Assembly (NCBI GenBank): GCA_032718475.1
Contig: JAUCBJ010006715.1
Location: forward strand, 1 to 41,884
Source of the DNA: Nemertoderma westbladi
Taxonomy: Eukaryota; Animalia; Xenacoelomorpha
DNA length: 41,884 nt
Direction: 5' to 3'
A program made the position numbers and the translations under genes. The notes below the pieces were generated by a model. That model had not been told where the DNA came from and made no database searches. It worked only from the letters and a program-made list of their open reading frames with translations. Below are positions 1 to 41,884 of the stretch, in pieces (within the stretch, counting starts at the first letter, position 1; each line of letters opens with the position of its first letter).

Positions 1-962
1 TGTGTCTCTTGCAGATTCTCCAACTCCAGTTGAGCAGTCTGCTCAAATGCTCTCCTTTCTGCTTCTGCGACTGCCTTTGCCACCGCCTTTGCTGCTTTTC
101 TTTCTGCTTCTGCATCTGCAGCCGCTGCCTTTCTTTCTGCTTCTGCATCTGCCTTTGCCACCGCCTTTGCTGCTTTACTTTCTGCTTCGGCATCTGCTAT
201 AGCCGCCGCCATAGCCGCCGTTTTTTGTTCATCTATCCTTCTTTTCTTTATTTGTTCTTCTTGGACTCTAACGAGGCGGAGTTTTTCATCACATTTAGCT
301 TGTTCTGCAGCTAACATTTCCGCATCGATTGCGTCCAACACAAGCTTGGTTCCTTCACTATTAGGGCGAAGTCCAGACAGTCGTCTCCTCAACTCTTCGT
401 CTCCTATGAATCGCTGATAGTCTGACAGATATATGTCAATGGCGTCTCTAGTTCGCGGCTTCTCTGCTGCTGTTAATTCGCTTTCCACTTCGCTTTCCAC
501 TTCGCTTTCCACTTGGCTTTCCACTTCGCTTTCCACTTTGCTTTCCACTTGAGAAGAAGTGGCGTCGGTTGATTTTTCAAAGGTTGGCCGCTCATCATAA
601 ACCGTATCCGCCATCTTCGCTCCGCGTTCGGGCGTCCGCTCAACAGTCTCCGAACTACTGGAGCTATCGGGCCGCTGAGAACTAGGTTCTAGGCTAGGAT
701 GTTGCTGCTGTTTGACAGCGGCTTCTTGATCCCGCTTGACTTGGGCCCGAGTACCGATGATAGACCTATGTTGTTCTACCAGCCTAGGGTCTGACACTAC
801 TACTGTAGGGATGGCCTTTTTTACAATAGTAGGTGACTTAGACTTGGATCTAGGATGTTCTATACTTGGATCTGGGTCACTGATCTTTTTAAGGCACTGT
901 CTAACAGTCATTCTAACACTTTCTAAGAGACTATCCGACAGTGATTGGGTTGTGTCTGACAT
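1..962 (-). CDS. Gag-like ORF1 N-terminus of copy A (about 320 aa visible, open to the window edge)
   Basis: Manual translation from ATG at 962: MSDTTQSLSDSLLE...(VESE/K)n...DAIDIYLSDYQRFIGDEELRRRL... then an Ala/Glu/Lys coiled-coil, with no stop. Homologous to the ORF at 40114. Missing from the ORF track, apparently because it has no stop in the window. The gag label is inferred from position only. Confidence 0.75.
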   Translation of the reverse strand, partial: MSDTTQSLSDSLLESVRMTVRQCLKKISDPDPSIEHPRSKSKSPTIVKKAIPTVVVSDPRLVEQHRSIIGTRAQVKRDQEAAVKQQQHPSLEPSSQRPDSSSSSETVERTPERGAKMADTVYDERPTFEKSTDATSSQVESKVESEVESQVESEVESEVESELTAAEKPRTRDAIDIYLSDYQRFIGDEELRRRLSGLRPNSEGTKLVLDAIDAEMLAAEQAKCDEKLRLVRVQEEQIKKRRIDEQKTAAMAAAIADAEAESKAAKAVAKADAEAERKAAAADAEAERKAAKAVAKAVAEAERRAFEQTAQLELENLQET

Positions 963-2295
963 GTTTGTTTACACAGTTGAATGCCTACGGCTATAAATAC
1001 AGTTAAAGCAAGTCTAGCAATTTAGTATCACTGTTAGCCTAGTACCGGTAATTACAGTATTAGAATACCGGTATATACTTATAGTATGTATAAATATTGT
1101 AAACTAGTTTTGTCACAGAGTACCGGTATATAAATTTAGCACAAAGATATAAATATATAATAGGCCTATCGTGAATACCGGTATACAGCTGACACTTATA
1201 GTATATATAAGTATAATTATTACAAACTAGAATTAATTACAGAATACCGGTATGATTTTAACTCAAATTTATAGAAATAAATATAATAAGCCTATGGTAA
1301 ATACCGGTATGTCAATTATTTTAGAATAATTGAATTTCTGAATATTTTAGGGTTACTTGGTTACTTTAACTTACTTTGTTACCTTTATTTAAGCAGCAGT
1401 CCAACTGATATTGAGACCTAGTTGTTGTATGGCAGACCTACTATTTATAAATCGTTTGATTTGATTTATAATAGATATATACCCGTTTAAATGGGTTTTT
1501 GTCAATATTTGAAATAAATGTTATTATTTCTGGGGAAGTCACTACACAGAAGCTGAGCGCCCTCAGTGAAGTGTTATTTATTTGACACTAAAACTGATAA
1601 TTCTAATTTACCTAAGTTACTTAATACTACAAATTACTTACGATACGGGTGAGATTAATTCTCTAATTAAACACAACAAAATATTACGGACGAAATTTTT
1701 AGGGTAATTTTACAGGAAGTCTACAAACCAGCCTAACAAAGGGTTAGATTTCTGGCTATTACAAAGGACAGGGTACTACGGTATTTAAATAATAAGTAAT
1801 AGTAAATATACTGCGTTGTCCAGATAAGAAAATACCACCGCCTGACGACCTATAACCGTATCGCTATAGGTACTACGTTATGTATCACGGATTGTTCCTA
1901 CCCAGAAGCTAATAGAGCTAACGAATGTGCCTATCAACCACTTTACAACACAAATATACTGCCTACACTAATTACTTCGGAAGGCACTGCACACTAAACC
2001 CTAAATTAGGTACAAGTACCGGTATAACAAATAATCAGTAGTTAAATATACTTGAACAGTTAAAAGAACCACGGCATCTGCTGGAGTGACCGAAGCACAA
2101 AGTCGTCAGTCTTTACCTACGCCAAGCAGCCCTGATGTAGTACCGGGGTTAGTTTAACTATAACGGTATGTATAACAAGCACAATTACTGTAGGAATAAA
2201 CTTGGGGACATGAATGTTGCGAATAATCGCATAAACTCTGAATAATAAATATTACGCTACCCGTACAGAATACTCAAACAAATACAAACCAAACG

Positions 2296-2805
2296 CTGGC
2301 AGACTACTATCAAGCCTAAACAAACTACTGTATGTGCAGATTCTGAAACTGTTAGTTAGTATGCGTGCTAACACGGTAGTACGACTTACTCTTTAAGAGG
2401 GGATTGACCTTACAGTTATGACTGCCCCAACTTACTAACGGCACTTGATCAGACCAACTCTACACACGCAGCAATCCCTTCAGACCCAAAAATAGCTAGA
2501 CAACAATCCAGCCTACAAATATTTGAGTAATAACTATTACGGTACCTGAACAGACCACACAAACAAACACAGGCTAAAACACTGGCAGACTACGATCAAG
2601 CCTAAATAAACTACAGTATATGCAGACTCTGAAACTGTTAGTTAGTATGCGTGCTAACACGGTAGTACGACTTACTCTTTAAGAGGGGATTGACCTTACA
2701 GTTATGACTGCCCCAACTTACTAACGGCACTTTATCAGACAAACTCTACACACGCCGCAATCTCTCCAAACTCAACAACAGTCAGACAGCAGCTCAGCCT
2801 ACAAT
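2296..2805 (-). repeat. Tandem duplication (period 286 bp) of a structured leader domain, copy A
   Basis: TCTGAAACTGTTAGTTAGTATGCG starts at 2342 and 2628; the cores are nearly identical. Confidence 0.9.
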
Positions 2806-3177
2806 TATCTGAACAATCTGAGCAGGGTCACACGCCTTCTGCTCAATATTAGCCTACTAGTAAATAAAACTGACAGAAATAAGTAAGCTCCAAAAGAAAC
2901 AAGGGGTGTACAGTCCCTAATCTCTTAAACAGCCTACCGGTATACAATAATCAAAATCGAATAATACTAAATGTACTTGTACAGCAGTACCGGTACCGGT
3001 GATGACAGTTAGGCCTACTGACCTACAAAGTACCGGTTCAGTTTTACCGGTCACTACGGTATTTTGCAACCTTATTGCCTACTGCAATAAGATTGTAAAC
3101 TGTTACTGTTCGACAGAACAGTATTTTACTGTATTTAATGCCTACACTTGCAACCTTATTGCTTACTGCAATAAGAT

Positions 3178-3190
3178 TATAAACTGTTAC
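3178..3190 (-). promoter_or_regulatory. Non-tRNA primer-binding site of copy A (GTAACAGTTTATA on the element strand)
   Basis: Directly follows the LTR end, lacks TGG, and is a 13/13 complement of LTR positions 3954-3966. Confidence 0.75.
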
Positions 3191-4443
3191 TGTTCGCGCT
3201 TTTGAAGACCTTTAGCAGTTTAACCTGCCAAAATTTATATGTCTTTTAGTTAATTAAAACACCTTTAGCATACGACAACAATTTATGCTAATACACAAAA
3301 CATTAGCCGAAGTCAGCCCATGCGCGATCATTCACCCGATGGATCTACACCCGGGAGACTGAATTCGGATGCTTAAATTTTATTATTGCAGTGTAAGGTT
3401 GCAGCGTAAACTTACTGTATTATTCGATAGATCGTTAATAATTAATCTCTGACAGATATTATTGGCTTTCGGGAAATATTAACAGTTCCTTTAGGACGTG
3501 GCGCTTTATCTATTTAAACAGAACTAAGACTTATACTAAAACGCAACGATACTGCTTATGATTGAAGTATAAAGCGTATTCTTTAGGAAATACTTTGTTA
3601 CCAATCACAATCATACACACTATTCTGCCGACCGTCAGTATATTTGATCACACATAAAGAGAGCAGCGATTGACTCACGTAGGGTCTGCTAAATAACATT
3701 GGATTCAATACACACCACATTAATATAAATCGCAATTGTTATGTATAGCCGGTCTCTCTAACCTGTAGTGTATCAAGAAAATTGGGAATTTGGGTGATTT
3801 ATCCGTATTATCCAAAGAGCAATATTTCCATCAACAAATAGGTACAATTAATAACTGACGGTAAATAACAGTACAAACAATATGATTAATGCAATTAAAT
3901 TAAGTGAGCTAGTGAGTTCTTTCGATTCGATTGATTAATTCGTGAGTAGTTAGGTAACAGTTTATACTTTCGATAATTTAAGCAGTTTTACTAGAGTTTC
4001 TAGAGCCGGTGTTTCTGGCTTAGACAGCAATAACAACAAAGTATCAAGTAAAAACAGTAAGACTGAACACACTCCTTATGATCGGCCGAAAAGCTACACG
4101 TCGACAGGAAAAATCGCTCTGATTGGCTCAAGCCAAACAAAGAACCATGCGTCCAATGGCTGTTTCCATGTCAGCAACCAGCTGTTAGATGTCGTAATAT
4201 GAATCATCACGGCTAAGTTGTGAAAGGTAGTTGGTGCATTGCAGGTTTTTTGCCTTACCATGTCCGCCAAAACACGTATATAGCAGAATGACTTTTATGT
4301 CCGTTAAAACACCTGTAACGGTACCTTGCGGGCGAGGGGAATATATATACAGTTAGAGAACCTTTTTAGAGTATTCCAGCGCCTGGGGGGAAACTGGATT
4401 GCGAAGCAAAAGGGGCCAGTTATATCCCACAGAAGCTTTTACA
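3191..4443 (-). repeat. 5' LTR of copy A (1253 bp)
   Basis: Element strand begins TGTAAAAGCTTCTGTGGG and ends AAAGCGCGAACA, matching the termini of copy B and the solo LTR. CCAAT motifs near 4120 and 4153. Confidence 0.88.
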
Positions 4444-5880: not shown

Positions 5881-6556
5881 TGTTCGCGCTTTTAGACCAT
5901 TTTAACAGTTTAACCTGATAATTTATATGTCTATTAATACCTGACAGCCCAATACAGATGAAGCCGAAGCCAGTCTAGCACGGCGTATGACCCACCGGAG
6001 GTGGGAGACTGGATCCGATGGCAGAAAGAGCCGTAGGACACTTTGTATTATTCAATTGATCTTTACTATAATCTCCAAAACTATGCTTATTTTCAGTTAA
6101 ATACTAACAGTTCCCTTCAGGTGCTGCGCTCTAAATACTACGCAGAGATATGACTTATACTATGTAATTAGTAATTACAACGGGTATGGGCATGAGATAA
6201 CGCAAATGTTTACATCCTTCAGGGATGTATTTATTAATTGAAGTGTATAAACACTCACACTGAAGGGCTGCAAGAATATTCTTGCCTCAAGTAGTCCACA
6301 AAGCATGAATCATATCGAACGCCGTAGAACGTATGGAACATGCAAGAACTCCCAATCAGGGACCAGTTACCATGCCATCAACCCGTAACCAGTTTCTGTG
6401 GGAATGTACGGGAAAGTGTTGTACTTAGAATAACCGCTGGAGAGAGTAAGTTTACATTAGTTCATAAAATACAAAGTTATTAAGAGTTTTTCAAGGGTTT
6501 AGAGTAACCAGCGCATTGTGTAAAATGGGGACATTTTGGCTGCAAAAGCTTTAACA
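5881..6556 (-). mobile_element. Solo LTR (676 bp) related to copies A and B
   Basis: Element strand TGTTAAAGCTTTTGC...AAAGCGCGAACA, flanked by a perfect 5-bp TSD GTTTT at 5876-5880 and 6557-6561. Confidence 0.88.
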
Positions 6557-16791: not shown

Positions 16792-16999
16792 GGGCCTGTT
16801 TTCTCATTTTCCTTACCTTCTTGCATCTTCACCCTCTGCTTGCGGTAGCCCCTGACTTTTACAATAGTAAAAGTTTTTATATTTTTAACGGCATTTTTAT
16901 CTGTAAATAGTATTTATGTATTTTCTGCAATTTCTGTAATATATTTTAATTTATTACTGATTATAACAATATAATATATAGTTCCGGCAGTTCTCAATG

Positions 17000-19900: not shown

Positions 19901-21543
19901 ACAGCTGCAAGGTTGGGGGTAAGAGTGACACCGTATTTGGAGGATGTTATACCAAGCATAGTAGAGACACACTATTGTTCAGATCCCATGGTGGTACTAG
20001 GATGGATACATAAGGAGAAGACGCACTATCCCATATTTGTAGCAAATCAAGTCGATGAGATAAGAGCAACAACAAACTTGGATAAGTAGCACTACTGCCC
20101 AACGGATGATAATCCAGCGCACTTGCTCTCGAGAGATGTAGTACGCCATGCTTTCTCAGGAAAGCAAGAGTTGTGGCAGCATGGTCCACACTTCCTCAAT
20201 GATAGGTCGAAATGGCCACCGATGAGGAAGATTGATCCAAAATGAGAAGAAACAATAACAATGGAGGTTGAGGGAAACGAATCGGAGGGTGAGGAGATAT
20301 TTAGCCAGTTGGTGAGGGAGATCAGTGAAGCGCCACTACATGTCACCAAGACAGACACAGATGAAAATCCAACAGATAAGTTGCTCAGTTACAGCTCTAG
20401 CTGGTATAAAATGAAGAATCTAGTAGCATACATGAGAGCCTTTGGCAAATTCGTTGGGGGAGCCGATACAAACGGGAAGCATAGACCGACCATTGATCTG
20501 GAGGGAGCAGCCAAAGCCGTAATATGTTACGAGCAGGGGAAGGCATACGGAGACGAGATCAAGTTGATTAACAACTGAGAACGACTCCGGTAGGACTTCA
20601 AGATACATACATTGTCGCTACAATTGGACAATGACAGCATCCTGGTGATGAATTCCAGGGTAGCCAATGACACCAGAGCCTTGGTCCCATCGGAACCGAT
20701 AATAATTACCCAAAAGTCAACCAGATCATATGTGACTCCCATAAAACCATAGTACACGGCGGATCCAACGCAACCCTTAACGAGATACAGAGGATGTATT
20801 GGGTCAACCAACTGAGGAAGATGGTGAAGTCAGTGGCAGGACAGTGTCAAACTTGTCAGCAGATGAGGAAGCCGAGGGTCATACAGGAGATGGCACCATT
20901 ACCGGAAACGAGGATGGCGCACCACATAACGCCATTCACATATAGCAGTGTGGATATGTTTGGTCCGATAAAGATCAAAGTGATGCGGCACACGGAGAAA
21001 CACTACAGGATAATCTTTGTTTGTAACAACTCAAGGGTGGTAGCGATAGAACTGGCGCAGGATGCAGTGACATCGTCGGCATTTATAAATGCATTGGAGC
21101 GATTCATAACCCAAAGGGGTGGAACTACAGTCACAGACACAGACTTTGCTCTATGGTGCTCTATTCAGACAATGGGACCAACCTCATTGGAGCGGAGAAT
21201 GAGTTGGTGGAGGCCTTTGACATTCTGGAGGAAGAAGATGTAAAGGGAGCAATGAGGAAACACCTTATAATGTGGGAAAGGGGGACACCACACACGCACC
21301 ACACATGCTGGGATGCATAGAATGCCTGGTCAGAAGCAGTAAGTGGCTAATGACGACGCTTCTCAACAACCACATGGTGATGGAGGATGTACTGAGGACA
21401 GTGCTGGCAACATGTGAAGGGGTAATCAACAGCCGACCACAATGTCCCTTGAATGATGATCCAGAGTCCATGGAGGCTCATACACCAGCGCACCTACTAA
21501 GGGAGAGGCCAGCAGAAGTAGACATGGAATACATTGACAAAGA
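17000..21543 (+). mobile_element. Degenerate BEL/Pao LTR retrotransposon gag-pol (left part)
   Basis: Gag, Zn knuckles CINCLSPDH..C / CRSC..KHHGLLH, protease LFDSGS, RT start YYLPHH..RVVYDCS..SINDCL.TGPNL, RNase H LHMLSDAS..AYGA / PKLEL.AA, integrase C..C, VDMFGP, SDNGTN. Many stops and frameshifts. Confidence 0.93.
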
Positions 21544-21920
21544 CAGGAGCCCTTAAAATTGCTAGAATCACTATTACCTGATTGGTTTTAAACTGGGTAC
21601 CTAGCAACGGCATCAGCTGGTTTCAAAATGCCATATTGCTGATATGGTGACAGGAAATAGTGCGGGTTTTGCGTCCAGTTTCCCCCCCTGTCTCTGAATA
21701 GAATACACAATTAAAATGATTTAATAGCTGTGCAGTATAACTTTATTAGTTTTGGGCATCGTGTTAAGGGTGGTAGGGAAATCCTAGCCTTTATATTTTT
21801 CGTAATTACGATCTAATTACTCTCCTCATCTCATGACATGGTTGCTCTGGCAATGGAATAAAACATCGACATCATCTGCATCCAAGAACATCGGATTTGT
21901 CATGAAGACACTGCCATGAA

Positions 21921-22278: not shown

Positions 22279-22587
22279 TGAAGTACAATGACATTGGAAA
22301 TGGATGGACGTTAGTAACAAGCTCAGCAGTAAGAATCTCGGCCAATGCATCAATTGGTGGAGTAGGAATTCTGCTAAGCCCATTTGCACTTAAGACCCTA
22401 AACAACATCGAATCTATAAATTCCAGGGTTATGATTGTGATTATTAAGTTTATGACTCACTTATTATCATTGCTGTACCGGTACTGCTGTATTATGTTGA
22501 TTGACTGACTCACCTATTATCGTTAACTATATTATATTTCACAATGGTTATTATTATTACAATATGATGTTATATAAATTTAAAACA

Positions 22588-22599
22588 TGGTAGCAGAGC
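22588..22599 (+). promoter_or_regulatory. tRNA-iMet primer-binding site
   Basis: TGGTAGCAGAGC immediately after the LTR; the known GalEa PBS. Confidence 0.9.
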
Positions 22600-22609
22600 G
22601 TAAACAATA

Positions 22610-25510
22610 ATGGTGATGGCTAGGGAAAATACCGGTACCGGTACCGGTAATCAGAAGATGCTAATAAAGAATCCACCGATTTTCAACTTTGAACGAGGTA
22701 AGTACCGTAATTGGAAAAAGGAACTAGCCTTGTGGTCGGCTGTTACAGATGTGGCGAAAAACAAGCATGGAGCTCTTGTGACTATGGGGTTAGTAGGCCG
22801 TGCGAAAGATAAAGCATTAGTATTAGATGTTTCCATTATAAATCATCAAAATGGTTTAGACAGAGTAATTGAAGTTTTAGATAAAATTTACCTGACTGCA
22901 GATGATGACTATGCTTACGAAACATATACCAAGTTTAAATTATTCATACGTTCAGCCGATTTAGGAATGCGTGAATATATCTTAGAATTTGAAAAGTTAT
23001 ATTCGGAAATGAATTCCTGCCAAATGAATTTGGGAGATGCTGTTTTGGGTGCTGAATTACTCATGAAGTCTGGTTTAGAGGAAAAAGAACGTCGCATTGT
23101 TATGGCGTCTAGTAAGCTTACTTTTGATAACATTAGGTCTACTTTGTTAAGAATTTACACATCAGCAGCCGTACACATGCCTTCTGTAATACCTGAAACT
23201 TACGGTAGTGAAAGGGAAATTAAAACTGAACCAACATTTTCGACACAGAATTACCGAGGCGGATACTTTGGTGGATATCGTGGTCCTGCATATAGAGGGC
23301 AAGGTGGACGACCTGCTTTGTTTAGAGGTAACTACTTCAATCGACGATATAACTTTAATTACAATTCAGGAAATAGGAATTCAACAATCTACAGTCCAGG
23401 TCGACAAGTTTCGGGATGGTCAGGTAGAGAACCTGGTTGGGAACAAGGTCGACAAGGTGGTTCAGGTCTGAATAGCGAACGTCGATGTTCGATTTGTGAT
23501 TCGACAATGCATTGGCGAAGGAATTGCCAACATGATATGGGTGCGGGCGCAAGCGCAAATTGGGCTACAGAGGTTAGGCCAATAGATGAAGAAAGCCATG
23601 AACCAGAAAATCGGAATTCGGGAAATTCATTGTATGCCATGTCATTAATTATCACAGGTGAGAATTATTTTAATAATCAGAACAACGGACCATATGGGTT
23701 GGCAGATACAGCCTGTAGTCGAAGTGTTGCCAGTCTTGAATGGTTTAACAGTTTTTGTAAATATTTGCCAGTGAAATTCCAGAATCTCGTGCAGAAACAT
23801 TCATCATCAGCTATTTTTGTTTTTGGTGGTGGTGAGAAAAGATATGCATTATTTGAAGTAACAATACCGATTTGGATCCAAGATAAACAATATAGTTTAA
23901 CACTTGATGTAATCAGAGGTAATCTTCCACTGCTGATTTCAATTGTGTCATTGAAACGGATGGAAGCCAGTATCGATTTAAGACAAAATGTGATTTCAGT
24001 TAAAAACATATCCGTTTTATTACATTATTTACCAAGAAGTGGTCATCCTATATTACCTCTATTTTCAAAAGATCAACAATATGTTTTAAATAAAGGGAGT
24101 GATTTCACCACATTACTCGCTCATGATGGAGAAATAAATAGGCCTAGAGAAAATAAAATACTAACAAATAATGAACTTATAAAGCTCCACAAGCAATTTG
24201 GTCATTCAAGTCCTGAAAAATTGCAAAAGTTGTGAACTAATGGAGGTTACAAAACAGATAGTAAGAAAATTCAAGATATTTGTAATTCTTGTGACAATTG
24301 TATAGTTCATAAGAAGCCTGTTGCTCGACCTATTGTTACTTATTGTCTTGGAAATTACTTTAATGAATTTTTGGCGGTTGATTTAACTGATATTTTTGAT
24401 AAATCATCGAATAAAAGTTTTAAGGCCCTACATGTGATTGATTTATTTTCTCGATATAGTGTTGTGGTTAGGGTTCGTAGTAAGGACACTGATGTTATTC
24501 AAGAATCATTTCTTCGAAATTGGATTTCTATATATGGCAACCCCAAAGAGGTTTTAGCTGATAATGGTGGTGAGTTTAGTGCAAATTCATTCACTCAAAT
24601 GTGTGATCAATTGAATATATATCACAGAACATCTCCCCCTTACTGCCCTTTTGCTAACGGCACAGTGGAGCGTCATAATGCGTTAATTAAGGAGACTTTT
24701 CAATGGGTTCAGATGGATCAACCCGAATTGTCTGTAGACACTGTTTTACAAATGTCTGTTTTTGCAAAGAATTGCACTTTAAATCATACTGGTTTTTCGC
24801 CATATCAATTGGTGTTTGGGTGCCAACCGATTATTAATTCAATTCTTACGGATCAATTGCCAGCTTTAGAAGAAACATATATGATTTCTATGGTTGGGAA
24901 ACATATTCAGGCTATAGTTTCTACTCGGAAAATTACGTTGCTGCTGAGTCTAGTGCAAGGATTAAACGTGCTTTACGATCGAATACCCGTCAGAATGGGC
25001 AGAGATATAATGCTGGAGATCAAGTATATTGTCGTCGAGCTAAGGATAAAGTTTGGGCTGGTCCAGCTGGGGTTGTTGGTCAGGATGGTGCCGAAGTTCT
25101 TGTTAAACATGGAAGTCGTTATTTGCGATGTCATCGAACTCAAATACTATTGCGTACAAAGCAGACATATTCCCAAGAACAAATAAAATCTGTTAATTCA
25201 CCTGAAAACACTTGCAATGAACTCTTGCAAGAACAAATAAAATCTGTTAATTCACCTGAAAACTCTTGCAATGAACTAAATAATAGTGCTGATATTCATG
25301 AAATAGAGTCTGATAGCGACATTGAAATTTCTAATGAAGAAGTGGAAAATAATATGCAGCCTGAGACAAATGCAACTATTGGAACTGATAACTTTCTCAG
25401 ACAAGAGCCAATTCCTAAAGTGAATGAGAAAGAAGGTAAAGTAGAACAATTGCGCCGATCGACCAGAGATAAACATAAACCTGATTACTTTTCATTTATC
25501 TCCGAATTTA
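22610..25510 (+). pseudogene. GalEa gag-protease-integrase polyprotein (in-frame stop at 24233, frameshift near 24930)
   Basis: CSICDSTMHWRRNC knuckle, ADTACS protease, H..H/C..C zinc finger, AVDL / DNGGEF / NGTVERHN catalytic DDE, W.GP..V.G.DG motif. Confidence 0.88.
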
Positions 25511-25519
25511 ATCAAGTTC

Positions 25520-27576
25520 TTTATGGTGGTTGGTTAGCTTTTTCGACCAGCAAGCAAGTTGATCGATCTCCATGCCTGGGATGATTACCTGCTGTCGTCA
25601 GCATCATTGATGGCATCAACCTGTTGGTTTATTAGCTACTGTAAATTAACAGAGTACTGCCTATTCAGGGACCTAGATGCAGCCTTAACTGCATTCTTGG
25701 CCGCTGTAGTCTGTTTGAGTCGGGACTCTTTCTGCGCCTTGTAGAGGTCATTTCGGCACTTCTGAATTTTGTTGTCAGTCCAGGGGGCCCGTTTTCTGTT
25801 TCGAGGGTATACAGGAACTGTTTCTGCAGCTGCTAACTTAACTGCCTCTGTGAAGGCAGTATAGCCCTCACAGTGATCTGCCACCTCAGAGGCAAGAACC
25901 TCATACCTGTTGCTCAGCTGTAGTGTGAAGCTGGATCTCACACTTGGCTGTTGCAACAGAGAGGACCAGTCATGCCGCGGCAAGGCAGATTTCGTTGTTC
26001 TGCTAGCACGCAGACTAAGTCTTACCTTGGCCACAATAAGGCGGTGATCACTGGAGAAGGGTCGTAGTGTAAATGCATTACAGTCTTGTATAGAGCTCCT
26101 GTATTTCCTACGAAACAGGATATGGTCTATCTGGGACTTGTCACCACTGGGCCCACTATGAGTCCATAGCTTTCCAGTTCGCTTCTTGAACTGGGTTCCA
26201 GCCGAAAACAATCCATTTCCAGAGATAAAATCCTGAAGATGGACGGAATTTCGGTTAACACTATTGCTATAGACCCAGGGCGATGTAGGTGATTGATGCA
26301 GACTTGCATTAAAGTCTCCCAGGAATGTTAAGAATGCATACTGATCCACTCCATCAGTAGCTGCTTGTAGATTCTAAAATTAGATATTCGATATTAGTAG
26401 ATTCTGGTAGAAATTTTCCACCTCTTCTACAGGGTAACACTAGTTGGAGAGTAGCACACAATCAGAACCACCTTAGGAAACTTCTTAGCCAGTCTTCCAG
26501 AACATGAGAAGTGGCAATGGATGATGCGGTTAGAGATTTGGTCTATTTTGTCCAATGCTGCATGTGCAGTTGGATTCATCAATAGACCAATTCCACCATT
26601 GCCACTATCATCTGCTGAAGCGAGGGCGAGTCGCCAACCGCCCCCCATGTCCTTAATCAGAACCTCATCAGTCTGTCCAGTCTGCATTCGGTGCTCTTGA
26701 ACACCCACTGCACTAAGAGAAAGCTTATCTGCCAAGGCAGTCAGCTCACCTTGTCGCATTGGGGACCCGAGTGTTAGGGTGTTTACTGAGGCTAGTCTAG
26801 TGACTTGCCTCAGATTCACCAATGGCTTTGTTGGTCGGGGTGGAACATGAGAGTAGCCTCCAACTCCAGAATCCCTCTCCCCCTCACAATCTGGCCTCCC
26901 TGGTGACCCAGGGTTTGGGCCAGAAAGGTCATCAGGAAAGGGACTCAAAGAATTGTTTGCCGCCCTCTCTCCAGTAGGGGGTGAGACAGGCAGCCGGTCA
27001 GGAGATAAATGACGCCTGTGAGGCCGATTGTGTCCAGTCATTCCACTGGCCTCTAGTGGCTGGACCTCCTCATTACAAATGTAATCCATAGTGGGGGTTG
27101 GGGGGTGCTTTTTGCCGAGTCAGCTCTCGGGGCAAATACCACACCCTGGTTTGCCATTCCACAGGGTCAGTGTCGCAGTGGAGTCAGATATGAGGCCCAT
27201 CACCCATATCTACTCTCGCGCACATGACCCACCATTGGCTGTGCAGCTCATCTGCTGGGTCATGCCCTGTACCCCTGTTGCCAGGTGCAGGTCGCAGTGA
27301 AGTGCACTCAGAGTGGACATGAGAACACTCTACTCCTGACCAGCCATTGGTAGATCACCATCTGCCTGGCCAGGCCATATACCCCTGCAGCCAAGTATAT
27401 GGGTCCTTAATCCAGAACCAAGGGCGCCCTTATCCCAGAACGAAGGGGGTCCTAGTTACAGGACCAGATTTGCCCTAGTAAGAGGGTCTATGCAGCTACA
27501 GGTGGCACCTCCTTTATGCTGCATGGAGGTGGCAAGTTTTCTTGATCAATGACCTAGAATACCTGACCTGACCTGA
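25520..27576 (-). mobile_element. 5' part of a second RTE-like LINE (5' UTR + endonuclease), antisense within GalEa
   Basis: ORFs 26427-27089 and 25636-26349: VQEHR, GGIGLL, CYSPT, GDFNA, IDHIL, SDHR. 5' end marked by (CAGGT)3. Confidence 0.88.
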
Positions 27577-28330
27577 ACTGTACCGTACTGCTGTATTATG
27601 TTGATTGACTGACTCACCTATTATCGTTAACTATATTATATTTCACAATGGTTATTATTATTACAATATGATGTTATATAAATTTAAAACAATGATCGCA
27701 ACATTTGATGGGAATCCCAAGGCAACAGTTATATGTTGCTACAGTCCAACCAATGCCTCTGAGCCAGAACAAGCAGTCAAGTTTTATGAAGAACTGACTG
27801 GACTTATAAAGGACATTCCGAAACACAATGTTAAAGTCATTGCTGGTGACCTGAATGCGCAAATTGGCCCAGAAAACATCAAGGGTTACACCTATAACAC
27901 CAGTTCTAACAGAAATGGGTACTTGCTTACTTTTAGACCTAATGGAAGAATGTGAATTGATACCAACAAACAACACATTCGAAAAGAGTAAGGGGAAGCT
28001 ATGGACCTTTCAATACCCTAATGGAACCAAAGCACAACTGGATTACATCCTTATAAACAAAAAGTGGAGAAACAGCATGATCAACTGCGAGACATACAGC
28101 TCGTTCAACCTAATTGGTTCGGACCACACAATTGTGACTGTAGAGATCGGACTCAGTTTGAGAGCCAGCAAACCCAGGGCAAATTAAATATGACTGGGAG
28201 AAACTCAGAACTGACAATGCTGTAAAGGATGTTTATACAGTAGAAGTTCAAAACCGCTTTGAAGCACTTCAGTCAATGGATGAAGACCAATCCACCAATT
28301 CAATATACCAGAATATAATAACAGCCCACA

Positions 28331-28896
28331 CACGTAAGGGAAAAGCATGGGCAGCCTTGAATAGGCTTTCCAGGATTTGGAAGTCACCGAGAATTAATCG
28401 GAAACTTAAGGTCCGATTATTTAGAGCAGCAGTAGTTCCAGTACTCCTCTACGGGAGTCCATGCTGGGCTCTAACTGCTGAGGACACCAAATCTCTGGAT
28501 GGCGGCACATTCACAAGAAAGCTACGCCGGGTTCATTTTGTCAAGTACAATGCACACATCTCCAACCTGACACTATATAACATTGGAGGTGTCTCATTGG
28601 TTCCCCCAAGCTTGACACTAGAACAAAATCGCCTCCGCTTTGCAGGACATTGCTTTCGCCGTGAGGACCAGCCAGTGCATAATCTTGTACTTTGGCAGCC
28701 TCATGGAGTGAATGAGCATGGTGGACAGCCCATGACTTTCTTGAGACGCATCTTAAAGGACACTGGCCTTGAAGATGCGGATGATCTAGCAAATGTCATG
28801 GGTTATAGGGAGTTGTGGCGGTGCAATTTTGTTGACAAGCCGGCACAGCATTCTTAAAAATGCAGCTGCAATGCAGCATGCCGATCCTAGTAGTTG
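28331..28896 (+). mobile_element. 5'-truncated RTE-like LINE inserted in the host LINE
   Basis: 12-bp TSD TAACAGCCCACA (28319-28330, 28897-28908); C-terminal LLYGS..W and RLRFAGHCFR. Confidence 0.9.
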
Positions 28897-30568
28897 TAAC
28901 AGCCCACAAGGAATCAGCTAAGAGGCATATCCCCCAGAAACCCAAACGAAAACAGTATGTGCCATGGCAAAACTCTGAGGTTACTTGTAAGAGAGAAGAT
29001 CTTAAGATAGCCTACAAAGTTAAAACCGAACAACCAACAACTGAAAACATTAACAAAGTTGAGAAAGCTAAGGACGATCTTAAATTGGCCTACAACATCA
29101 GCCAGGAAAAGTACATACAGGATAAAACTGAAGCAATTACAACTGCTCACATACAGCAACAATCAAGACTTACCTGGCAAACTGTAAATGAGGTATCTGG
29201 TCGGGAAAGTTGTGCAAAGGGGCGCCTCAAAGCCGATAGTCCTGAAGAACGTGTTGGGAAGTGGAAAAATCACTTCAGCAACTTGCTTGGGCAGCCACCA
29301 AACATAGAGGTCAGCCCTACAAGGAAAATATATGACAAGACACTACCTATAGAAACAGGGGACTTCACACCTGCCGAACTCCAAAGAAGCATTAAAAGCA
29401 TGTCCAATAATAAAGCGAGTGGATTAGATGAAATCCCAGTGGAGGTATGGAAAACCGGAGTGCTAAGCATACCATTATTGAATGTTTGCAACCGGATGTT
29501 AAAAGGGGAAAAGCCACCACCAATTTGGACTAAAGGTCAACTAAAGCCTCTCCCCAAGAAAGGAGACCTCGGCATACCAACAAACTATCGTGGGATCTGT
29601 CTGCGTGTGGTAGCTGCCAAAATATACAATAAAATGATTCCATATAGGATTAGGCCTCACATAGAGAAACTACTGCGTAAGAGCCAAAACGGATTTCGAC
29701 CAAGTAGATCAACAAAAGCTCAGATACTTGCACTACGGAGACTGATTGAAGGAATTAAGTCAAATAATCTCCCCGCTGTCATGACTTTTGTGGACTTCAA
29801 GAAGGCATTCGACTCCATCCATAGAGGTAAAATGCTTGAAATCCTAAGAGCTTATGGAATACCAGAAGTAATTGTTGCTGGCATTGGATTGTTAAATTGT
29901 GACACATAAGCGCAAGTACTCTCACCAGATGGTGAAACTGAGTTTTTCTCAATCCTGGCTGGTGTACTGCAAGGTGACACATTAGCACCATTACTATTTG
30001 TAATTGTGTTGGATTACGCAATGAGGACGGCCACAAAGGGTGAAGATCTGGGATTCACACTTTAAGAACGCAGAAGTAGTTGATATCCGGCAACTACAGT
30101 CACAGACACAGACTTTGCGGATGACATCGCCCTGCTCTCTAATACGCTAGCAGATGCACAGCTTCTACTAAATAAAGTGGAGAGGGCTGCTAAGGAGGTT
30201 GGATTGCATATAAATGCTACAAAGACAGAATTCATGACCTTTAATGTTGATGGAAACTTGACAACCATTGATAATAATCAACTAAGGAAGGCCGATGACT
30301 TCCAGTACCTTGGATCATGGATAGAGAGTAGCAAAAAGGACATAGACGTTAGGAAAGCAAAGGCTTGATAGCTCTATCAAAAATGGAAATCAGATCTCTC
30401 CAGGCACCTGAAGACTAAGTTATTTCGAGCCACAATGGAAAGTGTATATTTATACGGGGGTGAGACCTGGACACTGACTAAATCACTTGAACAACGAATT
30501 GATGGTTGCTACACAAGATTACTAAGGGCAGCCCTAAACATCAGCTGGAGACAACACATGACAAACGC

Positions 30569-30685: not shown

Positions 30686-31171
30686 TCAATGAAGTGGTTC
30701 AAAAGTTATTAAGACTTGACGAAGTGATATTTAGTACTTTCTAAACTTTTGACATACTACTTGTGTACCATGTTTGGTATAATTTCATCGCAAAGTTACT
30801 GTATTAGCATTCAAAGATTAGACGGACCGACCGACCGACCAACCGCCTGGCAGACCGACAGATAGACGCGAGGTTGAATTGGTACCTGTGTTCTAAGTTC
30901 ACGCTCTTTCGTGGCTCGCCCCACAGTGTTGTCAATTTAACGGGTGCTTGTCAGTTCTGTCACTAGCCTTGTGTGCCCGGATAGTGCCTATGGTTGTTTA
31001 AGGGTTTCCGAAATAGTGACTCTAGTATTGTAAAGGCCCTTAATAGTCCTTAAAATTACTATAATTACTAGTTCCTGTCGCCATATGCCATATCAGCAAT
31101 ATGGCATTTTGAAACCAGCTGATTTAAAACCAAACAGGAAATAGTGATTCTAGTAATTTTAACGGCTCCTG

Positions 31172-31550
31172 ACAAAGACAATTTATATATGCGAAAGAGT
31201 TGGAAGGTGGCTAATGCGATTGGAGCAGAGTATTGTGAGAGGTGGCTCCAAGAGTACCTACCGACGTTGCATACGAGGAGTAAGTGGAGGAATAATCAAC
31301 GAGAGCTAAAGAAAGGGGACTTAATAATAGTGATGGATGATACGGTCATTGACAATCAGTGGAGATTGGCCAGGGTTGTAGAATGTTACCCTGGAGAAGA
31401 TGGGAAAGTCAGATCCCTTCAATTCAGGATTGGCGGGAAGATTGGGGGTGAAAGACAGGAAGACTTACAAGAGGGCAGTAGGAAAGTGTTGCCTGCTGGA
31501 GGAATCGCCCTAAATTAATTGAATCGTCCAATAAATTTGACTGAGGGGGG
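31172..31550 (+). mobile_element. BEL/Pao integrase C-terminus and polypurine tract (right part)
   Basis: W.RWLQEYLPTL..RSKW, GDLII, WRLARV....G.DGKVR; GAGGGGGG followed by TG at 31551. Confidence 0.88.
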
Positions 31551-35944: not shown

Positions 35945-36380
35945 GTCACACTCACATCTCCAACCAGACCCTATACAACATTGGAGGTGTCGCATGTGTT
36001 CCCCCAAGCTTGACACTTGAACAAAGCTGCCTCCGCTTTGCAGGACATTGTTTTCGCCGTGAGGACCAGCCTAGCAGCCTGAGCACAATCTCGTGCTTTG
36101 GCAGCCCCATGGAGAAAATAGGCATGGTGGATATCCCATGACTGTCTTGAGACGCCTCTTAAAGGACACTTGCCTTGATGATGCGGATATTGTCGCGAAA
36201 GTGATGGGAGCTAGTTAGTTGTGGCATTGGAACTTTGTCGATATGCCGGCATAGCATTCTTAATGCACGCTGCATTGGGCTTGGCAATTGTGGATTGCAT
36301 GGTGGTGACAAAATATTTTTGTTAAGCTAGCATAGCATCTTAATGTGCAGCTTCAATGCAGCAGGATGATTATAGATAGA
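35945..36380 (+). mobile_element. LINE 3' fragment, same family as 28331-28896
   Basis: HISNQTLYNIGGV..VPPSLTLEQ..LRFAGHCFRREDQP matches 28555-28860. Confidence 0.88.
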
Positions 36381-36574: not shown

Positions 36575-36728
36575 GCAGGACCTTATCGCCCCTGGAACCT
36601 TATGGCCCCAATAAATTGCATTTTTGTTGGGAATTTCTCCCCCCCCCCCTGTTCTGAGTTTTTAAGAACTTATCGCCCAGGAGTCTTTCGCCCCCGAGTC
36701 GTTATCGCCCTGGTCCTTTATCGACCCT
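36575..36728. repeat. TTATCGCCC motif array (DNA-element subterminal repeats) interrupted by LTR B
   Basis: About 6 spaced copies ending at the LTR start. Confidence 0.5.
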
Positions 36729-37930
36729 TGTAAAAGCTTTTGTGGGATAACTGATTCGTTTGCCTTGTTGGCCAGTTCCCCCCCAGTCGCTAAGAATACT
36801 CTCAAAGTGATCTATAACTAAAAATAGTGCAAGTTACCAGCTTATTGGCTGATTTGCTGTACGCAGGCATCTGGGCTCTGTTTAATCGGCCAACAAGCCT
36901 AGGGAGGTTGCGTCATAGCCTTGTTTTGTATCTCCCAATAGAATTTGAGTTAGCCTTGATCTTGACCTATCACAGAGTACTGAACTGAAAATTTCCTATC
37001 TCACTGCTCTTTCTCTGTGTTGAACGGGAGCTTCGTGGAATAAGGGAGTTGGTATCCTCGTATAGAGCAGTAGTCACGAGTTTTTCAAAGCCACGAAAGA
37101 ACGGCTTTTTAGTGTTTTGTGCTTTCTGCTTTTTAGCTCAACACTAGTAGGTTTAATTATAAGGACATATATCCTTTAACTGGCTGCAATTACGCATCAA
37201 ACAACCTGGCTTTAAACTCTGTAAATATCAAAACAAACTGGCACGATTGATCTGTGAATACTGCATACTGCTTTTTGTTGTCGGTTATTCATTATATTTG
37301 TTGATGAATTATTATATTGGAATAACGAGAAATAACCCCGACACCCAATATTCTTGATATACCGAAGGTAAGAGAGAAAGGTTACCAATAACGATTGTGA
37401 CTTATGTTAAAGTGGTTTGAAGTGAATCTAATGTTATTTGATAGACCCTACATGAGTCAGTCTGTGTTCCTTTTATATGTGATTAAAATCAGTGAAGATT
37501 GGCAGATAAGTGTGCAGTATTGTGCAGCATTGCGTATGAGTGAGTCTGTTAAAGAAGCAATTCCTAAAGAATGCGCCATATATGTGAATTATAATTAAGC
37601 CATATCGTTGTGAGTAGTTTAAGTCATAACTCTGTTTATATAGATAAAGCGCCACGTCCTAAAGGAACTGTTAATATTCCCGAAGATAAATAATATTGTC
37701 AGAGATTATATAATACTGTCAGTCGAATAATACATTAGGCTTACATAGCAACAAAATTAAACCGTCGAACCCAATCTCCCGGGAATATCCAGCGGGTGAA
37801 TGGTCGCGCACGGATTGGTTTCGACTAGTGTAGTGAATCAAATACTTGTCATAGGCTAAAAAGCGATTTAATATCTAGAAGACATCTTAATTTGGCGGGT
37901 TAAACTGCCAAAGGTCTGAAAGCGCGAACA
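36729..37930 (+). repeat. 5' LTR of copy B (1202 bp)
   Basis: TGTAAAAGCTTTTGTGGG...AAAGCGCGAACA. Confidence 0.88.
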
Positions 37931-37942
37931 TTAAAGGATATA
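37931..37942 (+). promoter_or_regulatory. Non-tRNA primer-binding site of copy B (TTAAAGGATATA)
   Basis: 12/12 complement of LTR positions 37168-37179 (TATATCCTTTAA). Confidence 0.75.
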
Positions 37943-38225
37943 GCTTCTTTGTTGCAGTAAGCAATAAAGTTGAAAGTACCGGTCAACCGGTAAACCTGAA
38001 CGGTACACCTGTAGGTCAGTAGGCCCAACAGCTAGAACCGGTACTGCCGTATAAGTACACTAGTATTATTCGATTTGATTGTTGTATACCGGTAGGCTGT
38101 TTGAGGGATTAGGGATTGATCACCCCTTATACCTTTATATGGTTTACTTATTTCTGTCAAGTTTTATTTATTTGTAGGACAGTATTGAACAGAAGGCGTG
38201 TAAGCCTGATCAGATTGTACAGACG

Positions 38226-38785
38226 ATTTGTAGGCTGAGCTGTTGTCTGATTGCTGTTAGGTCCGAACGAATTGCAGTGTGTGTAGATCACCTGTCCGAT
38301 TAAGTACGGTTAGGAAGTAGGGGCAGCGAACGCTGTAAGGTAAACCCCCAACTAAAGAATAAGTCGCACTACTGGGTTAGAGCGCATACTCCCTAATCAT
38401 TTCGGAGTCTGCATGGCCTGTAGTTTATTTAGGCTTGAGAGTAGTCTGCCATCGTTTAGTCTGTACTTTGTTTGTGTAAGTCTGTACGGGTAGCGTATAA
38501 TTTTATTTAGATAATTTGTAGGCTGGATAGTTGTCTGGCTGTTATTAGGTCTGAACGGATTGCCGCGTGTGTAGATCATCTGTCCGATTAAGTACGGTTA
38601 GGCAGTAGGGGCAGCGAACGCTGTAAGGTAAACCCCCAACTAAAGAATAAGTCGCACTACTGGGTTAGAGCGCATACTCCCTAATCATTTCGGAGTCTGC
38701 ATATACCGTAGTTTGTTTAGGCTTGATAGTAGTCTGTCAGTGTTCGGTCTGTATTTTGTTTGAATAGTTTGTACGCGTAGCGTAA
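38226..38785 (+). repeat. Tandem duplication (period 288 bp) of the structured leader domain, copy B
   Basis: TCCGATTAAG at 38295 and 38583. Confidence 0.9.
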
Positions 38786-40113
38786 TATTTATTATTCAGA
38801 GTTTATGCGATTATCCGCAACATTCATTCCCCAAGTTTGTTCCTACAGTAATTGTGTTTGTTATACATACCGCTATAGTTAAATTAACCCCGGTACTACA
38901 CGGGCTGCTCGGCGTAGGTAAAGACTGGTGATTTTGTGCATCGGTCACTCCAGCAGATGCCGTGGTTCTTTTAGCTGTTCAAGTATATTTAACTACTGAT
39001 TATCTGTTGTACAAGTACTCGTACCTAATTTAGGGTTTAGTGTACAGTACTTTCCGAAGTAATTAGTGTAGGCATTATATTTGTGTTGTAAGGTGGTTGA
39101 TAGGCACATTCGATTAGCTCTATTAACTTCTAGGTAGGAACACTCCGTGATACATAACGTAGAACCTATAGCGATACGGCTATAGGTCGTCAGGCGGTGG
39201 TATTTTCCTATCTGGACAACGCAGTGTATTTACTACTACTTATTATTTCAAATACCGTAGTACCCTGTCCGTTGTAATAACCAGTTTTCTAACCCTTTGT
39301 TAGGCTGGTTTGTAGACTTCTTGTAAAATAATACCCTAAAAATTGCGTATTTTGTGTTTTTGTAAATTTTTGTGTTTATTTAGAGATTGTAATCTCACCC
39401 GAATTGTACGTAATTTGTAGTATTAAGTAACTTAGGTAAATTAGTATTATTTGTTTTAGTGTCCTATACGTAACACTTCACTAAAAGCGCACTGCTTTGT
39501 GTAGTGATTACCCCAGAAATAATAACATTTATTTCAAACATTGACTAAACCCATTAAAACGGGTATATATATATTATAAATCAAATCTAACGATTTATAA
39601 ATAGTAGGCCTACCATATAACAACTAGGTCTCCATATCAGTTGGACTACTGCTCAAATAACGGTAATAAAGTAAGTAAAGTAACAAAGTAACCCTAAAGT
39701 AACAGAAATTCAATTATTTGAAATAATTGATATACCGGTATTTACGATAGGCCTATTATCTTTATTTCTATAAATCTAGGCTGAAATTATACCGGTACTT
39801 GTAATTAATTCTATTTCAGAATTATATATCCTACAAACTGTAAGCTGTATACCGGTATTCCAGATAGGCCTATTATATATTATATATATTTGTGCTAAAT
39901 TTATACCGGTATTCTGTGATAAACCTAGTCTGTGATAATACTTATATAGTTATATATACTATAAGTATACCGGTATTCTAATATATTATATATATATCAC
40001 GCTACACTGAGTAGCCGTACCGGTAATTAATTATTAGGCTAACAGTTAATACTGAGTTACTAGACTTGCTCAGACTGTAATACAGCAGTAGACATTCAAC
40101 GGTATACATAGTC

Positions 40114-41884
40114 ATGTCTGATACTAAGCAGAACCTGTCAGACAGTATATTAGATGTAACTATCTGCGACTCAGATAGAGACGTACAACCGTCTGGTCGT
40201 AAATTCAGTTCACCCCCCACTGTGAGGAAGGTCATCCCTCCAGTAGTAATAACAGAACCTAGGCTAGTCCAACATCGTAGGTCTATCATAGGCACTCGAG
40301 CTCAGGTCAAGCGGGACCAACAAGCAGCGGAACAGCAACAACCCGCTAGTCAAGAACTTATTCCTCAGCGGCCCAGCAGCTCCAGTAGTGAGGATACTGT
40401 AGAGCTGACACCCGAGAGCGGAGCAGAGAGGACGGATGCGGTTTATACGGATCCCCTTCTCATCCTTCCTGCAGCCGTGCTCAGCTGGGTTATTGATCGC
40501 GGTGGAAGAACACCAGATCGATTGGGCGAGGAGTCAACGATCAACTAGAGATAGTTATGCGGGGTACACGAGGGAAGAATTGAAGTCTATTGTCGAGTCG
40601 CAATGGAACTTCCCCGGACCCGGACTCCCGTTTGATTTATCAGAAGCTGCCTGGGAAGACATACACCGGATGGGAGTAGCCAAGGAAACCATCGATCCAG
40701 CTGTATGGAAGAGGTCCGCAGCCGGATACGCACAGGGATTCTTCAGCTCTATGGAGCGAGTAGAAAGACAACTATTTAAACAACCTCAAGGACCTCAAGA
40801 GCAGGAACAGCTGCTTTATCAAGTTAGAGAAAGAGTTCTGCGAATTAGGCTAATCTTATCCGCCTTTGAGGAGGCTTCTAAAAGAAGACAAGACACGTCG
40901 TTGCAAGTTGCCGTAAAGACTTGGCTTCAAAGGGTGAGACGCCAGGTTCAAGGAGCAGCTCAGTGGAAAGTTCAGTTGGAGGAGCGCTCAACACAAGGAG
41001 AATCGACAGACGCTACTTTCTCCCAAGTGGAAAGTGAAGCGACGGCAGAGAAACCGCATAAGAAGGATGCCATTGATATCTATCTGTCAGACTATCAGCG
41101 TTTTGTGGGAGATGAAGAGTTGAGGAGAAGGCTAGAGGGACTTAGCCCTAATAGCGAAGGAGCCAAACTTGTGTTAGATGCGATTGATGTGGATAGGTTA
41201 GCGGCGAACCAAGCTAAATTCGATGAACAACTCCGCATCGCTAGAGAAAAGGAAGAGCAAGTAAGGAAAAAACGTATAGAAGATAGAAAGACAGCAGCAG
41301 CAGCAGTGGCAGCGGCAGAAGCGGAAGGAAAAGCGGCAGCGGCAGAAGCAGAAGGAAAAGCGGCAGCGGCAGAAGCGGAAAGAAAGGCAGCAGAGGCAGC
41401 GGCAGAAAAGAAAGCGGCAGCGGCAGAAGCACAAAGGAAAGCGGCAGCGGCAGAAGCGGAAAGAAAGATAGCAGTGGCAGAAGCAGAACGGAGGGCATCT
41501 GAAGAGACAACCCAACTAGAGCTGGAAAATCTTCAAGAGAGGCAAGATAACTTTAATAAACAGTTAACAGCTAGTAATATGCAGATGATGAATCGATCTA
41601 CTCCCAAACGACAAGGTTATACATCATCTGAGGAAGGCGATACCACCGACGCTGAAGGCGGAGGAAATCGATCCCGCCTAAGCAGACGTAAAAGAACATT
41701 CCACCGTCAGAAATTGCCTGATTTGCCTCCAGCTGTTAGAAGGCAACTAAATAATACCAACTTAGAGAGTACAGAACCCACAAATCAAATAATTACAATA
41801 GAAAGACTCCCTACTATAGTAGATGAGCCTGAAATAAGTAGGCCTGTTCTTGAAATCACCCCTTCGGTAATAGACACACCTGGG
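40114..41884 (+). CDS. Gag-like ORF1 of copy B with one +1 frameshift (probably near 40452); open to the window edge
   Basis: MSDTKQNLSDSIL... then, in the +1 frame, ...DAIDIYLSDYQRFVGDEELRRRL...(AAAAEAERK)n with no stop; homologous to the copy A ORF. Confidence 0.72.

Follow-up and report, generated by a model that had tools for sequence, protein, structure and literature searches.

How do ribosomes reach the first open reading frame of a retrotransposon when a long RNA leader, nearly free of start codons, lies in between? This question is raised by a locus of Nemertoderma westbladi, for which the whole 41,884-nt stretch of DNA that was analysed is called the window. A first-pass annotation had noticed a 2.2-kb segment with very few ATG triplets between a long terminal repeat (LTR) and a putative gag gene. 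It had ascribed their scarcity to selection in an RNA whose ribosomes avoid the LTR by internal entry or shunting, and then scan over a long distance to the gag start codon.

Copies of the element in the window

The leader is part of a high-copy LTR retrotransposon, characterised by TG...CA ends, a target-site duplication around one LTR, a primer-binding site (PBS) adjoining the 5' LTR and dispersed copies. The window contains two copies, A and B, which can be aligned from the LTR into the ORF, and a solo LTR, C:

36729..37930, plus strand: 5' LTR of copy B, 1202 bp, TGT...ACA, its ends common to A and C
36729..37167, plus strand: predicted U3 of B, divergent from A
37168..37930, plus strand: predicted R-U5 of B
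37931..40113, plus strand: AUG-purged leader of B
40114..40548, plus strand: start of ORF1 of B, with a purine at -3; the frame stops after 144 codons
40409..41884, plus strand: a second open reading frame in B; homologous to the later portion of ORF1 in A, and still open at the window end
3191..4443, minus strand: 5' LTR of copy A, 1253 bp
963..3190, minus strand: AUG-purged leader of A
1..962, minus strand: ORF1 of A; 320 codons up to the window end, where it is still open; no Pfam match
5881..6556, minus strand: diverged solo LTR C, 676 bp, with 5 identical bases on both flanks (target-site duplication)

As C has both ends and the 5-bp duplication of a solo LTR, it fixes the LTR ends of A and B, and the end at 37930 is the one given by the first-pass annotation. 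All three LTRs begin with TGT and end with ACA. Both A and B are cut by the window ends, with pol, the polypurine tract and the 3' LTR lying beyond. In four sequencing runs the summed depth of the family lies, in qualitative terms, far above that of single-copy flanks. Summed contig depth amounts to about 1e5-1e6 on the LTR, leader and ORF against 30-240 on the single-copy flank in runs X1 and X3, values that do not represent a copy number. Joined forms in DNA runs skip 40155-41036 and 41067-41620 of ORF1, and internally deleted derivatives are therefore common in the family. Copy A lacks about 570 nt that B has.

ORF1 is coding, as shown by the third-position bias between the two copies (79 of 156 differences). 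In-frame stops occur shortly upstream of its start (40114 in B, 962 in A), which has a purine at -3. In B it is interrupted, since the second frame matches the later part of A's ORF1. A Pfam scan of 30 ORFs, including A's ORF1 and B's first frame and leaving out B's second, found no match to ORF1. Homologue searches that covered 1.84 billion representative sequences, longer homologues and the Atlas yielded nothing usable. The single match among the representatives, 23 residues of a repeat protein with no likeness beyond them, was rejected. A single-sequence structure model of ORF1 had a pLDDT of 48.7, too poor for a fold search. The name gag would therefore come from position, ORF1 being without a homologue, and the superfamily would likewise be assigned from position, with pol outside the window. 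A search of a viral sequence collection for a related locus gave 0 matches, and a 22-nt leader motif found in two metagenome contigs was dismissed as chance matches in unrelated coding DNA.

AUG codons are purged from the sense strand of the leader

The leader of B (2183 nt) contains four ATG triplets, at 38139, 38413, 38805 and 38957, and none in its final 1154 nt. That of A, read from 3190 to 963 on the minus strand, contains three (2232, 2211 and 2077) and none over 2074-963. These counts are those of the first-pass annotation, whose estimate of about 40 expected ATGs also agrees with the 43.1 that we computed from base composition. Dinucleotide content predicts 34.6 (B) and 34.9 (A), and 2000 dinucleotide shuffles of each leader never came near the observed numbers (minimum 21 for B and 19 for A). 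ATG is the most depleted of the 64 trimers in both leaders, with observed/expected ratios of 0.12 and 0.09 and the next trimer at 0.49, whereas its reverse complement CAT occurs at about the chance level (22 vs 27.5 and 23 vs 30.0 expected). Equal depletion in other DNA, which the first-pass annotation had named as a possible objection, does not occur within this stretch: among 699 control windows of 2183 nt, taken from the rest of the window on both strands, the lowest ATG ratio was 0.50 and the median 0.89.

The comparison of A and B indicates that the process has continued since the two copies separated. Over 2008 aligned triplets, and given the A/B substitution spectrum, only 2 ATGs are private to one copy vs 29.6 expected; for CAT the numbers are 15 vs 24.1. 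Similarly, 1 of 736 one-step neighbours of ATG has become ATG, and 10 of 550 neighbours of CAT have become CAT. All seven leader ATGs (four in B, three in A) have a pyrimidine at -3. The evidence comes from two copies with a common ancestry; in these, the loss of AUGs is genuine and stems from selection acting on the sense RNA, with a purge that was still ongoing after the split. The AT-richness of the leader, its repeats and its enrichment in CTG and CCG/CGG could have pointed to composition or mutational bias instead of selection. However, the loss of ATG is strand-specific, persists under dinucleotide control, is ongoing between the copies, depends on the base at -3 and is absent from the 699 control windows, and we reject this hardly credible explanation.

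The leader is non-coding, as the first-pass annotation had supposed: its longest stop-free frame is 55 codons in B, and none exceeds 58 codons. It was also correctly described as better conserved than much of the LTR, with A/B identities of 86.5% for the leader, 76.5% for R-U5 and 75.1% for the N-terminus of ORF1. A block at 38801-39330 is 93% identical in the two copies. Several features stand out:

38226..38800, plus strand: two tandem 288-nt units, 88% alike within a copy and 77-82% across copies
38805..38882, plus strand: uORF whose AUG is common with A, with unconserved length and frame (25 vs 15 codons)
38957..38974, plus strand: conserved 5-codon uORF (MPWFF), ending with TAG in B and with TAA in A; its AUG is the last one ahead of ORF1
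39164..39187, plus strand: conserved hairpin of 9 bp, in both A and B, with one G-C/G-U change

The hairpin is the one that had been noticed near 39164. Apart from a few such structures the leader is weakly folded (-14 to -34 kcal/mol in 120-nt windows). The TAA form of the 5-codon uORF is also present in run X5, and about 1,140 AUG-free nucleotides separate this uORF from ORF1. At position 38416, B differs from nearly all aligned contigs of the sequencing runs, among the best-supported ones listed. The counterpart of the tandem units in A lies at 2237-2816. That the units are closer within than across copies suggests homogenisation, which may have taken place during replication. The palindrome ACCGGT occurs 10 times in the leader of B (37978-40024) and 12 times in that of A (1044-3051), and only 9 times in the 32 kb between the two elements; these repeats are possible dimerisation, Gag-binding or transcription-factor sites.

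A predicted self-primer at the start of the RNA

No tRNA-type PBS, which would start with TGG, is found in the first bases past the LTR of A or B. Instead, the first bases of each leader are complementary to a stretch inside the LTR of the same copy:

37168..37179, plus strand: predicted self-primer of B, which would form the first 12 nt of the RNA; reverse-complementary to 37931-37942 without a mismatch
37931..37942, plus strand: PBS of B, adjoining the LTR, without likeness to a tRNA site
3954..3966, minus strand: 13-nt predicted self-primer of A, matching the reverse complement of A's PBS at every base
3178..3190, minus strand: PBS of A, at offset 0 from the LTR
37891..37912, plus strand: U5 hairpin just before the LTR end, its loop kept in A, B and C
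37947..37969, plus strand: hairpin that follows the PBS immediately and is conserved in A (window z -3.7)

The two primer sites align together, 776 (A) and 763 nt (B) before the LTR end, but their sequences differ, and each PBS is complementary only to its own LTR, cross-copy matches being at most 8 nt long. Shuffled LTRs reached the observed complementarity in 2 of 3000 cases for the 12 nt of B and in none of 3000 for the 13 nt of A. Leader positions with a 12-mer complementary to the LTR number one in B and three in A; A has a second, near-identical block of LTR end, PBS and hairpin at 3064-3112. The predicted fold of the 830-nt 5' region contains the primer/PBS duplex in both copies, flanked by the U5 and post-PBS hairpins, and in B the predicted pairing probability of primer nucleotides 2-10 is 0.96-0.99. 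We also considered a resemblance of the U5 hairpin to a ribozyme, and dropped the idea as Rfam gave no match.

In Tf1, the RNA's initial 11 bases anneal to the PBS and become the primer through cleavage (PMC7175516; PMC4600332, available text). By the same logic, we predict that the present element primes itself without a tRNA and that its RNA starts at 37168; the true leader would therefore be about 2,950 nt long. The first-pass annotation had overlooked this duplex, which shifts the predicted RNA start upstream by 763 nt. Neither copy has a TATA box at -30 of the predicted start.

Strong AUGs are largely missing from R-U5 as well

The first-pass annotation rested its idea of a bypass on the many AUGs of the LTR, which would block cap-dependent scanning. 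The LTRs do contain ATGs, 14 in A and 9 in B, but those of B all lie within 37304-37800, none being found in its first 439 nt, and 17 of the 18 R-U5 ATGs (nine per copy) are in a weak context, with a pyrimidine at -3. A purine at this position is the rule for start contexts (PMC5902531, available text). In R-U5, B has a single ATG with a purine at -3 where 11.1 are expected, and A has none where 8.1 are expected; none of 1000 shuffles gave so low a count, while ATGs with a pyrimidine are at chance (8 vs 9.8 in B and 9 vs 8.3 in A). All R-U5 uORFs, the nine of B among them, end before the LTR end. Elsewhere the purine share is 566/1121 in the background, 4/5 in the U3 of A and 6/12 in the solo LTR. 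The bias is restricted to -3, and among 62 trimers it is ATG that ranks first in this respect. With shared R-U5 sites counted once, 1 of 13 has a purine (p 0.0015); in copy A there is no purine(-3) ATG over the 3,207 nt up to ORF1. On the antisense strand of R-U5, 2 of 9 ATGs of A have a purine (28/1000 shuffles), leaning likewise, and 7 of 13 in B, with no lean. The test of position -3 was chosen post hoc, after the contexts had been viewed.

A purge of strong AUGs is expected only where RNA is scanned, and we infer that ribosomes pass through R-U5. This argues against the proposed bypass, all the more so as shunted leaders keep their AUGs (PMC3542737, available text). In contrast, the long scanning to the first ORF that had been proposed along with it is supported by the AUG purge and the weak contexts.

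How ribosomes might reach ORF1

Our preferred reading, to which we assign a probability of about 0.6, is that the RNA starts at the self-primer, 763 nt upstream of the LTR end, and that ribosomes load at its capped end and scan some 2,950 nt to ORF1. The RNA would be capped at the predicted start, 37168, where 40S subunits would load. They would pass the weak AUGs of R-U5 by leaky scanning and resume scanning (reinitiation) after short uORFs, of which the conserved 5-codon uORF would be the last, and the AUG-free 1.1 kb would then be scanned to ORF1. The first 12-13 nt of the same RNA would pair with the PBS and be cleaved off to prime reverse transcription, like those of Tf1. A toy scanning model with assumed capture rates, which speaks to feasibility only, brought 2-34% of ribosomes to ORF1; with shuffled leaders the fraction was no higher than 2.5e-7. 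The leader was likely kept long for packaging or dimerisation signals, selection having cleared its AUGs rather than shortened it.

Two observations do not follow from pure scanning. Firstly, weak AUGs have persisted upstream of the PBS but been purged downstream of it. The stricter purge past the PBS likely reflects a larger number of ribosomes crossing there, for instance on a second, shorter or spliced, mRNA. Secondly, the predicted U3 of B has no ATG (0 vs 5.3 expected in 439 nt), which the scanning model does not predict. The ATG-free stretch on the plus strand of B is 702 nt long in all (36602-37304) and spans the whole U3; the U3 of A has five ATGs. Given its interrupted ORF1, B may be a defective copy with an inherited AUG signal.

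The two-tier purge would be explained if most ORF1 protein came from a spliced mRNA lacking an intron that begins in the LTR, or from a trans-spliced leader joined at the same acceptor, trans-splicing being known from some LTR-rich animals (PMC9911081, available text):

37368..37957, plus strand: candidate intron, with a GT donor conserved in A and an AG acceptor just past the PBS

The spliced form would serve for translation only and the unspliced form as genome, similar to the separate RNA pools of BARE (PMC3735527, available text), and this scheme can coexist with the preferred reading. By generic splice weights, the donor ranks highest among the GT sites of B and is retained in A; the acceptor comes second among the candidates of B, and its aligned counterpart in A scores lower, at 0.6. 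The intron contains the PBS and, in both copies, eight of the nine R-U5 ATGs. Private ATGs are near the neutral total rate within it (9 vs 11.5 expected in 37369-37930), a point that also weighs against the preferred reading, and absent from the would-be first exon (0 vs 3.7). However, purine(-3) AUGs are purged within the candidate intron too (1 vs 8.1 in B), and unspliced RNA must therefore also be scanned. Run X5, which we guess to be RNA, has contigs in each of the 30 bins of LTR and leader, and these reveal neither start nor strand, nor the absence of splicing; they include two joints, neither at the intron sites, and one contig (37317-37646) that crosses the donor unspliced. We consider splicing as the main source of ORF1 protein unlikely.

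Internal entry or a shunt would account for the stricter downstream purge in another way. The primer/PBS duplex would bring the cap beside 37943, and ribosomes would cross the base of the loop or enter near the PBS, bypassing the 763-nt loop, and then scan 2.2 kb. The duplex, predicted with high probability, does put nucleotide 1 beside the leader start, and the complete purge begins near the LTR end, with change points 697 nt (A) and 416 nt (B) past the predicted start, both with wide intervals. Rice tungro bacilliform virus (RTBV) moreover combines shunting with AUG-free scanning (PMC5902531, available text). This route nevertheless appears rather improbable. Strong AUGs are purged in the very part that would be bypassed, whereas shunted regions retain AUGs (PMC3542737); no short 5' uORF ends before a large stem, and the duplex is short and AU-rich. 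As for internal entry, Rfam gave no IRES match at the gathering score and one chance match (E 3.6).

Alternatively, an additional promoter, located in U5 or close to the PBS, might produce a shorter capped mRNA without the primer, which would be the main scanned RNA, as in Tf2, where a downstream start yields an RNA that cannot be reverse-transcribed (PMC5341516, available text). The best-kept part of all three LTRs, at 37615-37681, contains a TATA-like run, and such a promoter would explain the stricter purge downstream. However, it leaves the purge of strong AUGs upstream of this block unexplained, and a poly(A) element would be an equally good reading of the block. We regard a second promoter as distinctly improbable.

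Under scanning from the capped end, it is tempting to speculate that the 12 primer bases act as a switch in a mass-amplified, self-priming element with a single genomic RNA that is scanned cap-dependently over 3 kb. While paired to the PBS, the primer would mask the cap and send the RNA into reverse transcription; when unpaired, it would admit ribosomes. In another version, the PBS overlies a predicted branch point, and the unpaired primer would allow a splice that removes the PBS. We hold this idea tentatively and with some doubt.

Comparison with known systems

We view the leader as a variant on two known mechanisms, self-priming and long scanning, its entry route being deduced from sequence features. 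By analogy, priming would work as in Tf1 and scanning as in RTBV. Like Tf1 and Tf2 of S. pombe, which belong to the Tf1/sushi Ty3/gypsy chromoviruses, the element has no tRNA site and a PBS that adjoins the LTR. The complementary stretch at the RNA start has 11 nt in Tf1 (PMC7175516) and 12-13 nt here, counted from a predicted start. Hairpins flank the PBS as in the Tf1/sushi group, and the 5-bp target duplication is shared with Tj1 (PMC4600332). In contrast to Tf1 and Tf2, the LTRs are 1.2 kb long, the primer-PBS loop has 763 nt and a further 2.2-kb leader follows; in Tf2 the downstream start is found some 600 bp from the LTR 5' end, immediately ahead of the start codon (PMC5341516). The Tf1/sushi group is known from fungi, vertebrates, mosses and club-mosses (PMC6317226, available text). 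Regarding the sushi LTR end motifs TGTYANR and CNTNACA (PMC3601003, Table 3), a weak feature drawn mainly from fish elements, A, B and C all miss the 3' motif, and at the 5' motif A and B deviate at the fourth base while C fits. Self-priming does not fix the superfamily, since it is also predicted for the TAR lineage of Ty1/copia (Houba, Osr-1), whose hosts are plants; the available text of PMC6317226 reports no comparable leader for these elements.

The pregenomic RNAs of RTBV and badnaviruses similarly have a long AUG-free stretch that is scanned, with weak AUGs and short uORFs tolerated (PMC5902531). In RTBV this stretch has about 900 nt, consists of the coding ORFs I and II and is reached after a shunt (PMC5902531, PMC3542737), unlike the approximately 3 kb of non-coding RNA with signs of scanning from the 5' end described here. 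The shunt leader of CaMV has about 480 nt with eight AUGs (PMC3542737), whereas the present leader is weakly folded and purged of strong AUGs throughout. In BARE1 of barley and in Tf2, translation and reverse transcription, which would otherwise compete for one RNA, use separate transcripts (PMC3735527, PMC5341516). These are the model for the spliced mRNA and the second promoter discussed above; in the present element a second transcript would be hypothetical. In the literature that we could search, with subscription papers and Repbase mostly outside its scope, we found no report of an AUG-purged multi-kilobase leader in a self-priming element.

If the preferred reading is correct, the element would offer a natural test of 40S scanning distance on a native RNA. 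The 3 kb to be scanned would be roughly three times the stretch known from RTBV, and thousands of copies would record selection on each AUG and its context. Self-priming would extend to a new animal lineage and to very long leaders, and the choice between translation and reverse transcription would be tied to a 12-bp duplex. AUG-context purging could also be used as a sequence-only map of transcript starts in LTRs.

Other elements in the window

A copia-like element on the plus strand (22473-27691) has 115-bp direct repeats that are 99% alike and an integrase core at 24236-25186. Unlike A and B, it has a TGG-type PBS, with an ORF about 20 nt later. A minus-strand fragment of a LINE endonuclease (25636-26373) lies inside it. 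A tRNA scan gave 0 hits. A decayed Bel/Pao element on the plus strand (16975-21556 and 31088-31518), split by later insertions, encodes DUF1759, Peptidase_A17, an integrase zinc finger and DUF5641. A LINE-type reverse transcriptase with DUF6451 is found at 28162-29909 on the plus strand, and a fragment of the same high-copy LINE family at 35953-36277, just upstream of copy B. An uninterrupted ORF for an SLC35B4-like nucleotide-sugar transporter (7927-8973, minus strand) is at most 55% identical to any match, and in a tree of 34 of the 62 matches, one trimmed to 330 aa, it forms a long branch without a clear placement. The bases at -3 and +4 of its first ATG are T and G. Finally, inverted arrays of a 21-nt unit form a foldback or MITE-like element at 11497-12569.
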